A DNA stretch of 64,000 nt from Chrysomallon squamiferum (GCA_012295275.1 CM022669.1:4402001-4466000), one strand, 5' to 3'. Positions 21,709 to 24,700 are shown, counted from the stretch's first letter. Made by a program: numbers and translations. The notes: generated by a model not told the origin, from the sequence alone.

Positions 21709-24700
21709 TTACGTAAATTTGTGTTTACACCGTCGAGACTGTTTTCTAGCTTCACGTTCCAGAATCTTGTTCTTGTCGATGCTTATGATGAAACTGCGAC
21801 CGTCCAGTGGAAACTTGGCTGATTTAATCAGTGGTACATTCTTTGTCACCAACAAAACTCGTTTTGCTGTGGAGTGAAAAAAAAAATATATATATATATA
21901 ACTGTAAATGCTTCCAATAAAGGTAACTTCAATAAGAAATCACAATGGTCACAAAAAAGATGAAGAATCAGATGAGATGAAGACTGGAAGATACTGTATC
22001 AAAAGAGATTTTTGTTAATTCATATCTACATTTCATTTTTGAAAATAGTATTACTTCTTATATTGTGATTTAAAAAAAAAAAAAAAAAAAATTTTGTGAA
22101 CAAAACATTATTCATAGAATTATTGATAAACTATTTTATGCTCAAAAGATGATATCCAAGGTTATAACAGATGTATCTAAGATATCAATGTAGTTAAAAC
22201 TCAACCTATTTTTATATTACATATCACACAAGTTGTTAATGTGGTTTTGTTATCACACTATGAAGTAAAAGAAATATGTTGTTAACAACATGCACTGGGC
22301 TATTTATGCAGAACAGCAGAAAAAGGTCTATTTATGAACTCTCCCATGGGCAGCACTTGTAAATGTTTGCTGTGAATAACTAGAATCTGAGCCCATGGAA
22401 TATTTAAACATGCTTTGTATTTTACTTAGTTAAAGTGAAAAAAAATCAACCTAAAATAGTAATAAATATTTTATTTAGTAGCAGTGGAAAGAATATGCTG
22501 TTATCCAAACTTATTCTTGGTCAAAGTGACAGTCATACTGGTGTCAGCTTATTCCTGTTAGAACAAAAATTAGTAATGTTTTATTAGTATGAAGCAGTTC
22601 TAGTAATGAAAGAATAAATTAGTCAGCAGTTCACAACTAAAAATATATTAACCCACCTCGTCGCCTTTTCTTATAACCTGAAAATGTGAGATAAAAAATA
22701 AAAACAGAGAGAAAAAATGTGTTTTTATTTAGGCCTGCACTTGATCATTAATGTGGATGCTTTAAGGATATTTAACAATTTAACATTTTCAGTCACCAAA
22801 TTACTTCCCAGCACCATGTATTTTTGCACAATGGCATCTAGCAGGTAAAATATTTGGTCTTAACTTAAGCTGGTGCGTTATGTCAAGACGTCTTGCCAAC
22901 AGCACCAAAAGGGTTAATGCACATCAATATTCAATGCTTGATTTTAGAATGTACATTTTATATTTTGATATAGTAAAATTGTTGAAAAGGACACAGATAT
23001 TATTCTAATCTATATTAAAATAGATGCTCCAATTTAATTATAATCACATGGTTCACTTGAAGAACCAACATCATTACTGTATTCTTTTATCTGTAAAAAT
23101 TTAATTTGTTTGTTTATTTATACCCTGCCACAAATACCTCTTTACTGATATTAGCTTTATTTATTACTGAATGGTGTGGTTGACCGTAGAAATATTATTA
23201 TTAACATTGCTTTTTTGTTGAATGATTGCATACACTGATTGTAATTACTAACATATAATGTTTGTATCTGCTTGCTTGTTATTTAAATTTGTTGTGTAAA
23301 TTTCTTCTTTTTTTTTTAACTTTTTTTTTAAAGTTGCTATATTTCCTTTAAGATTATAATTTTAGGAACAGAAACATGTCTCACATTAAAAAAATGTCAT
23401 TTTTAAAATTCCTGGATATCTTTTCTTTTTCTCTATCACTATATTAATCAAACAATTAAAAACATAAATTTTAAAAAATAACAATAATTTTGACATATTA
23501 AACAAATAATAATAATAAAATAATAAAACTTTCTACAAAACTAATTAAATATTTCTCTCTGACATTCACAAGAATATAAAAATTACAACATCATAATTTA
23601 ATATTTGTAAAAGAAATAAAAAATCAACTTTACCTGTTTGATTAATAACTGAACAATCACAGTTTTCTGCTATTACGAAGTTAACTTGCATGTTCACTTT
23701 CTGTTTTCGACGAGTTCTTAAGTTGACTTTTATTTTTATAGACTGCTTTCCATTTCTTCCCAAAATAGCTTTATAAACTAAAACAAAAATAATAAAATAA
23801 ATCAAACCTTTCATTATTTCAGGAAGACATTCATTTTATTACATACACATGAAAAAGAAATGACAATACCAAGTTCTGTTAATTAATTAGCATGTTTGCT
23901 TTATTACTTGCAAAGTTTGATTATCTATGTCAAACACAATAATCATGTAATTTTTGGATAAATAAAACATTTTTAGGAAACATATTCTCATCACGATAGA
24001 TACATTAGCATTAGAAAGAAATGAAATTTTACCTCCGTCAGATTTACAAATGATATCTTTAAACAGATCTGGTCGAACTGTCAAACACGTAGGACATCCT
24101 TTTAAAGTTTGAGGTTTTAAAAATGGTGGAATAGGATCTGAAAACAAATTTGAATTAAAGTTAAGCAAAATTATAAAAGAGCAACAATATTTCAGTAATT
24201 TGCAAATTTAAAATTTGAAAATGTTTTGTCAAATATAATGCAAGGTTATAGACACTAATAAGTTTGCACATAATAAAGTCAACTAACATTTGTGGAAAGA
24301 GGTATTTTTTACAAAAATATTACTGGTTAATATTTGCTGTTTAATGGTAACTGCTATCAGAGTAGAACTGAATCTTTAATTAGTGCCATGCAGTAATAAA
24401 TTTAAGAATAACAACACAAATTACCAATTAGTTTCTGAGCTGGAGATATCTTATCAGGTTGTATTCTCATTTCACTGTGCAGTGGAATTTCAGCTTTTGT
24501 ACCACATGTTGTCTTAAGCTTGTATGATTTAATAACTGCCACGTCTGAAATAGCAATTGAAATTGCATAAATTCTAAATAAAAAAGTTGAAAATTAAGAT
24601 GTTATTTTCAGTACAATTTTATATTTTTTTTATATAAATGAATCATTAAGTAGATTTCTCTTTTTCTTTTTTTTCTCTTTTCTTATAAACACCAAATAAT

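Follow-up and report, generated by a model that had tools for sequence, protein, structure and literature searches.

A 64,000-nucleotide stretch of the Chrysomallon squamiferum genome (GCA_012295275.1 CM022669.1:4402001-4466000; hereafter the window, with positions counted from its first nucleotide) carries an alpha-2-macroglobulin (A2M) gene of the thioester protein (TEP) family that ends in an additional C-terminal domain. On balance, we favor a reading in which the gene encodes a gastropod A2M trap with a basic, NTR-fold tail on a likely flexible linker and in which, by analogy with NTR modules of other proteins, the tail likely serves as a polyanion tether. A preliminary description of the window, made from the sequence alone, had reported the tail on this gene; the tail is real but not special to it, being general to A2Ms of invertebrate bilaterians, in which an NTR domain is widespread and under-recognised.

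Using tblastn with the Gigantopelta and Haliotis orthologues, and with exon borders fixed at AG/GT, we traced the gene along the minus strand from 59650 to 21709 in 38 coding exons. The spliced gene model has 1700 residues and is 62% identical to Gigantopelta aegis XP_041375396 over 1610 columns; among the matches listed in a search with the thioester domain, the closest were neomphaline and abalone A2Ms. In a six-frame reading with AG/GT borders, an open frame spanned the exon at 31765 to the stop codon at 21709, and all peptides quoted in the preliminary description were found on the minus strand where it had placed them. The features of the gene are as follows.

21709..59650, minus strand: whole alpha-2-macroglobulin gene, about 1700 residues (tblastn, spliced model)
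59586..59650, minus strand: first coding exon with a putative signal peptide (ATG and a hydrophobic run, matching residues 1-22 of the Gigantopelta orthologue)
35108..37786, minus strand: predicted bait region up to FPETW, in two exons, 37786-37705 and 35243-35108 (alignment with A2M homologues)
34220..34444, minus strand: MG6/MG7 exon, whose frame shifts near 34270 in comparison with all homologues (tblastn, alignment)
30435..30611, minus strand: thioester exon, GCGEQ intact (Pfam TED, expectation value (E) 3.5e-17; alignment)
29638..29969, minus strand: TED exon, Ser at the catalytic position (Pfam TED, E 8.7e-30; alignment)
25046..25154, minus strand: receptor-binding (MG8) exon (Pfam A2M_recep, E 3.5e-4; loose ends of RNA contigs in 3/3 runs)
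24425..24544, minus strand: end of MG8 and first part of the 40-residue proline-rich linker (RNA joint 24425/24137)
24033..24137, minus strand: remaining linker and NTR exon 1, C-x2-C-x12-C (frame, RNA)
23634..23777, minus strand: NTR exon 2, C-x-C (RNA joint 24033/23777 in 3/3 RNA runs)
22657..22677, minus strand: 21-nt basic micro-exon (AG/GT candidate from an intron scan; RNA in 3/3 runs; basic loop in the Gigantopelta orthologue)
21709..21866, minus strand: last NTR exon, with the sixth cysteine and the stop codon (first 11 bases present in RNA loose ends)

The five 3' exons (24544-24425, 24137-24033, 23777-23634, 22677-22657 and 21866-21709) all have AG/GT ends and phase 1, and they share one open frame, up to the stop codon, with the thioester and receptor-binding exons upstream. 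The preliminary description had quoted its tail exons correctly but had overlooked the micro-exon between the last two, which contributes seven residues, five of them basic. Five public runs cover part of the window: four are RNA runs of a single study and the fifth is of DNA type. Three of the RNA runs and the DNA-type run were mapped on 23600-24600. RNA depth over this interval covered the three exons there, and two single contigs (1597 and 1626 nt) each crossed all three. The joint 24425/24137 was present in two of the three RNA runs, with a matching loose end in the third. In all three, upstream loose ends matched the A2M_recep exon from 25046 onward, and downstream loose ends matched the micro-exon and then the first bases of the last exon; RNA support covers the exons from 25154 to the start of the last exon. 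The transcript carries the tail spliced onto the receptor-binding domain, and the cDNA check proposed in the preliminary description found transcripts continuing into the tail exons rather than ending before them. Two variants that are also in frame, a short donor at 24503 and a gene model without the micro-exon, were ruled out by the RNA contigs.

The body of the protein belongs to the A2M subfamily of TEPs and not to C3. When the Gigantopelta orthologue was compared with PDB sequences by phmmer, the scores ranked A2ML1 (723 bits) and A2M (669) above CD109 (526), TEP1 (310), C5 (262) and C3 (256). We then built a careful tree from 51 rows (the gene model and 50 proteins hand-picked from about 150) and 711 columns running from the end of MG6 to MG8, with the tail excluded and no C3 rows. 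The gene grouped with Gigantopelta as its sister (100/99), the pair falling in a gastropod A2M clade (100/100), and CD109/iTEP formed a separate clade (100/99), on which ground membership of CD109/iTEP was rejected. The order MG1-8/CUB/TED with MG8 was read from Pfam TED and A2M_recep matches on the gene's own exons, the full set of matches on the 62%-identical orthologue, and exon-by-exon tblastn. In the alignment, the thioester motif GCGEQ is intact, and the bait region is a short, variable, cysteine-free segment before FPETW that lines up with A2M baits. The catalytic column holds Ser in the gene model, His in CD109/iTEP rows and Asn in vertebrate A2M rows; Ser at this position is reported for mollusc A2M in a passage of PMC7016707. 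No anaphylatoxin module was found in the alignment of the gene model and no Pfam ANATO in the 12 homologues scanned, nor does the gene model contain an RxxR or four-basic run before the tail. The A2M-like body of the preliminary description thus stands on the score ranking, the tree, the bait region and these two absences. We rejected membership of complement C3/C4/C5, given no ANATO, no beta-alpha RxxR site and no catalytic His, despite the C-terminal NTR-fold domain assigned via homologues.

Following the 40-residue proline-rich linker, the tail comprises 128 residues (1573-1700 of 1700) with its cysteines spaced C-x2-C-x12-C-x43-C-x-C-x59-C. It contains 33 Lys and Arg and 9 Asp and Glu, for a net charge of +24 and an isoelectric point (pI) of 10.6; the cysteine pattern, the very basic unit of about 120 residues and the Pro-rich linker all agree with the preliminary description. 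The tail is 62% identical to the Gigantopelta C-terminus over 131 positions, which, with its recurrence among homologues, speaks against a chance resemblance. An AlphaFold2 model of the Gigantopelta tail, made from a 12-row alignment, reached a mean local confidence (pLDDT) of 87.7 and a predicted template modelling score (pTM) of 0.84, and it was this orthologue model that entered the structure searches. By Foldseek, its best match was C4 (E 4.3e-4, template modelling (TM) score 0.47), followed by C3, C5, PCOLCE1, Sizzled and TIMPs. By VIA-align against 48,161 representative chains, the first seven matches were C345C domains of C3/C4/C5 (Z 9.2-7.3, root-mean-square deviation (rmsd) 3.3-4.0, 113-120 residues aligned); next came hookworm ES-2 (7.0), PCOLCE1 (6.7), Sizzled (5.9), agrin (5.4) and TIMPs (5.0-5.1), with the first unrelated fold at 4.9. 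We take hookworm ES-2 to be TIMP-like. In a second structure comparison, the first 47 rows were all chains of the complement C3/C4/C5 family, with a best Z of 10.0. The orthologue model has an OB-like, five-stranded NTR fold flanked by helices that superposed on C345C with Z 9.2-10.0 and rmsd 3.1-3.4 over 115-117 aligned residues.

When tails were scanned in isolation, the Pfam NTR family (PF01759) matched five of the 12 at E values no higher than 10, the best being 5.9e-5; on full-length close homologues, it matched 2 of 12 below the cut-off and the other 10 not at all. A profile of the tail found an amphioxus A2M (E 5e-8), whose own tail, alone among 11 proteins scanned, cleared the curated Pfam NTR cut-off (29.1 versus 21.9 bits). 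As far as sequence goes, the strongest link between tail and NTR is transitive, via the amphioxus A2M tail. ESM features placed the snail tail with NTR clusters at 0.92 (166 shared) and the locust tail at 0.91 (174 shared); we count this result as supporting only, because shuffled proteins reach 0.9 in 4-10 of 100 cases. Taken with the fold model, the structure ranking, Foldseek and the Pfam match via amphioxus, the tail is predicted to have an NTR fold, which upholds the NTR assignment of the preliminary description, the modelled fold being of the NTR/TIMP-like type.

In textbooks, a C-terminal NTR fold separates complement C3/C4/C5 from the macroglobulins. The complement branch of the TEPs is defined by its anaphylatoxin and C345C domains in passages of PMC7016707, PMC9156758, PMC8712716 and PMC12849515. 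Our structural comparisons suggest that the tail is kin to C345C specifically rather than to other NTR modules: it occupies the terminal position after MG8, and C345C domains hold the top structural rank. In the supplementary alignment of PMC7016707 (species taken from row labels), three Biomphalaria C3 C345C domains show C-x2-C ... C ... C-x-C ... C, as in the tail, and the human, amphioxus, horseshoe-crab and clam C3 rows are without the C-x2-C and C-x-C pairs. Counting against such kinship are the lack of a sequence match, a long variable linker in place of the C3 anchor segment, the mobility of the module, and a structure library in which C345C copies abound and netrin and sFRP domains are scarce.

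Queried with the tail, two word-indexed searches for homologues retrieved next to nothing (1 and 7 matches). The tail was carried by 13 of the 120 matches listed in the thioester-domain search. Leave-one-out profiles still scored an annelid at 74 bits, a locust at 40 and a WAP-bearing A2M at 21. A profile search of 1.84 billion representative proteins returned 106 matches at E up to 0.001, 41 of them with a detectable TEP body. Among 20 clusters examined, 14 were A2M-type and came from three bivalves, two gastropods, a cephalopod, four insects, a horseshoe crab, a tick, a sea star and amphioxus; the other six were non-TEP proteins of ticks, a spider, a mite and a nemertean. The A2M of Cristaria was confirmed to carry the tail. 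Because it is also present on non-TEP proteins, the module is mobile, although these carriers are predicted proteins and some may be model fusions. This NTR subtype was also noted in large uncharacterised tick, spider and mite proteins, where as many as three copies scored.

In a quick tree of 57 rows, from which 15 earlier rows (near-duplicates) had been removed and to which 21 new ones had been added, all new rows fell on the A2M side and broadly followed animal phylogeny. The annelid protein AVP12670.1, named 'complement C3-like', also groups with the A2Ms and combines two TIL modules and a His in the catalytic column with the NTR tail. Mapped on the 57-row tree, the tail requires six changes of state, at least four of them forced by starred branches; in the 51-row set, the tail-bearing rows plus Pomacea were rejected as a single clade (approximately unbiased (AU) test, p 1e-63). 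Tail-less rows in our sample were three vertebrates, malacostracans, a beetle, a sea spider, a centipede and Pomacea. The centipede A2M shares a linker motif with that of the locust (53% over 30 residues, pairwise E 4e-6) and then ends without the domain. The simplest reading is one ancestral domain with repeated loss. It is likely that the tail is ancestral and was lost in vertebrates; from its distribution, it would have been present on the A2M of the protostome-deuterostome ancestor and lost several times, vertebrates included.

In a 955-residue Batillaria model, pLDDT fell below 50 over 35 linker residues (796-830) and was 80-94 in the tail, so the linker is predicted to be disordered. Its length ranges from 33 to 302 residues in 13 of 14 homologues, AVP12670.1 being left out because of a parsing error, and some linkers contain an inserted Ig, WAP or EGF module. 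Because of this predicted disorder and the varying length and inserts, the tail is probably an independent appendage. When the Batillaria model was compared with C3 and C5, the alignment ran through the tail at an rmsd above 20 Å; because AlphaFold places domains on flexible linkers unreliably, we did not use it as docking evidence. We propose that, following established A2M biology, a protease would cut the bait region, the body would close, the thioester would link the protease, and the receptor-binding domain would signal clearance. The basic NTR tail, by analogy with PCPE-1, netrin-1 and TIMP-3, would bind glycosaminoglycan-like polyanions on cells, matrix or mucus, tethering the secreted inhibitor to sulfated or acidic surfaces without being a protease inhibitor itself. 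Judged from its charge, the tail may bind heparin, as the preliminary description proposed; 11 of the first 12 tails had a pI of at least 9.4. According to sections of PMC2871463, heparin binding is documented for the NTR domains of PCPE-1 and netrin-1, and the C-terminal NTR of PCPE-1 binds heparin with no inhibition of metzincins.

Several points weigh against this reading. The NTR tests were made on homologues, and the AlphaFold2 model is of the Gigantopelta orthologue tail, 62% identical, rather than of the gene's own spliced tail. Foldseek TM-scores were about 0.47, with a single match at E below 0.001. The gene's four tail-region exons, scanned singly, gave no Pfam NTR match, and tail profiles and a tail fragment searched against PDB sequences at E up to 10 found no NTR protein, only chance zinc-finger matches or none. 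Among the 41 TEP-bodied matches, 15 had a net charge of at least +10 and 16 one of at most +3, and the tails of amphioxus, sea star, Cristaria and horseshoe crab are approximately neutral. The module also stands on non-TEP proteins, where it forms the end of chains bearing Kunitz repeats or a carboxylesterase, vWC or LRR domain (17 proteins scanned). Counts of changes on the tree cannot separate gain from loss, and some absences of the tail may be incomplete gene models. The RNA evidence consists of contigs from a single study, showing presence and not level or strand, and the DNA-type run covers 3 of 30 bins and is useless as a control. Lastly, with the frameshift near 34270, the frame as assembled stops at residue 887.

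Since basicity is lineage-dependent, the family as a whole cannot have polyanion binding as its function, and our best guess, by analogy, is polyanion tethering for this gene and its gastropod relatives only. The same variation in charge leaves some room for a different, though in our view doubtful, explanation, that the conserved job of the NTR tail is a specific protein contact (with a receptor, a partner protease or another A2M in an oligomer), like that of C345C in complement, with basic charge as a gastropod overlay. Near-neutral tails in amphioxus, sea star, bivalves and chelicerates retain the fold-defining cysteines, the nearest folds are C345C domains, and retention of the tail for more than 500 million years suggests a specific partner. 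Across 25 aligned tails, however, conservation reaches 70% in no more than 10 columns, of which six are cysteines, and no conserved surface motif stands out; a linker of 33 to 302 residues and the reuse of the module on unrelated proteins also speak against a fixed contact.

The frameshift itself is more likely an assembly error. It raises the very improbable alternative that the locus is a transcribed pseudogene or a non-functional frameshifted allele, from which the tail is not produced. Against this, it is the only lesion in 38 exons and sits in a G run adjoining a 58-bp tandem array, where assemblies err; the 3' exons splice cleanly in all three RNA runs, and the branch to Gigantopelta is of ordinary length (0.25). 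The array, at 33572-34290, has 36- and 94-bp variants of its 58-bp unit and is built from the 3' end of the MG7 exon and its donor site.

We also judge it very improbable that the tail inhibits metalloproteases in the manner of a TIMP once cutting of the linker has freed or uncovered it. It belongs to the fold family common to TIMP (Z 5.0-5.1), an exposed linker could be cut, and homologous linkers contain WAP and TIL inhibitor-type modules, but TIMPs ranked below C345C in all three structure searches and the tail starts with C-P-x-C, not with the N-terminal C-x-C motif of TIMPs. Moreover, the domain is C-terminal and its first cysteine internal, and sections of PMC2871463 describe that one extra N-terminal residue abolishes TIMP inhibition and that the PCPE-1 NTR trimmed to start at that cysteine was still non-inhibitory; metalloprotease binding, raised in the preliminary description, is thus unlikely in the TIMP sense. 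Membership of the TIMP family (MEROPS I35) was rejected, as there is no free N-terminal zinc-chelating cysteine and the domain begins at residue 1573 of 1700.

Other features of the window lie outside the tail. Within the A2M gene, a 111-bp, 95%-identical duplication at 48149-48397 copies the acceptor and start of coding exon 3 as an upstream decoy. The bait-region intron holds a GC-richer insert (35740-36950) whose short frames resemble a Tc1/mariner transposase fragment and gave no meaningful Pfam match. Two tandem plus-strand gene copies with KY-like Ig domains (Pfam PF23265, E 8e-24) occupy 162-14500 and converge on the A2M gene; ahead of them lies a 270-bp segment in repeated and inverted copies. 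We take these genes to be transglutaminase-like hillarin/KY. A CpG-rich island at 18000-18550, between the two convergent genes, contains a 128-residue open frame with no Pfam match.

The wider meaning of the tail concerns how TEPs are told apart. Full-text literature searches, with most subscription journals outside their scope, turned up no publication in which an A2M is credited with an NTR or C345C domain, and the tail may have been recognised before. A Lottia member bears the UniRef name 'NTR domain-containing protein', so some tail members have already been caught by automatic annotation. The presence of NTR on A2Ms across protostomes and invertebrate deuterostomes weakens C345C as a diagnostic of complement, and the tail can lead to misnaming, as with the annelid 'complement C3-like' sequence that groups with A2M. 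Snail, bivalve, tick and insect A2Ms gain a candidate targeting domain that vertebrate A2M is without. In wasp, ant and bee A2M, a cysteine-rich extension has been described whose function was called unpredictable in a passage of PMC5691223; the NTR assignment gives an identity to this extension, which was earlier left unassigned.

Among known systems, the closest are other invertebrate A2Ms (MEROPS I39; Littorina littorea AIC31934.1, Biomphalaria glabrata BgA2M, Cristaria plicata ACF39935.1 and spider HaA2M), cloned sequences that share the domain order, thioester and six-cysteine tail; the gastropod members of this set also have Ser at the catalytic position, as here. For BgA2M and HaA2M, the alignment in the supplement of PMC7016707 prints the tail without a domain label. 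Close gastropod relatives, Gigantopelta included, carry an RRKR/RKKR furin-type site in an MG5 insert and may be two-chain A2Ms, whereas the gene model is without this site and no such exon was seen by eye in intron 40319-40727. Vertebrate A2M, PZP, A2ML1 and murinoglobulin include the best solved relatives of the body (A2ML1 at 723 bits, and the best Foldseek match), but the vertebrate A2M rows in our trees (3/3) end soon after MG8 with no tail. CD109/iTEP proteins have a TEP body without an anaphylatoxin module, as here, and end in a short cysteine stretch or a glycosylphosphatidylinositol (GPI)-type end rather than an NTR; the tail profile scored no CD109/iTEP row. The C-terminal NTR domains of PCPE-1, sFRP/Sizzled and netrin share the fold (Z 5.9-6.7 for Sizzled and PCOLCE1), the position after a linker and the basic surface, but they score below C345C structurally and sit on unrelated proteins. 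No member of this group was identified among the TEP-bodied or Pfam-scanned matches (28 of 106 scanned) of the 1.84-billion-protein search.

Complement C3/C4/C5 share with this gene an NTR domain at the extreme C-terminus after MG8, their domain being the best structural match, but differ in body, anaphylatoxin module, tetrabasic site and catalytic His; C3 has a short cysteine-rich anchor segment before C345C, in contrast to the long variable linker found here. Whether the domain is older than the C3/A2M split is now a testable question. We see about even chances that the common ancestor of C3 and A2M already ended in an NTR/C345C domain, which would have been kept, too diverged for Pfam, in invertebrate A2Ms from snails to amphioxus, lost in vertebrate A2M, CD109 and iTEP, and afterwards moved, as a portable tether, to unrelated secreted proteins. 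If so, C345C would be neither an invention of complement nor diagnostic of C3/C4/C5.

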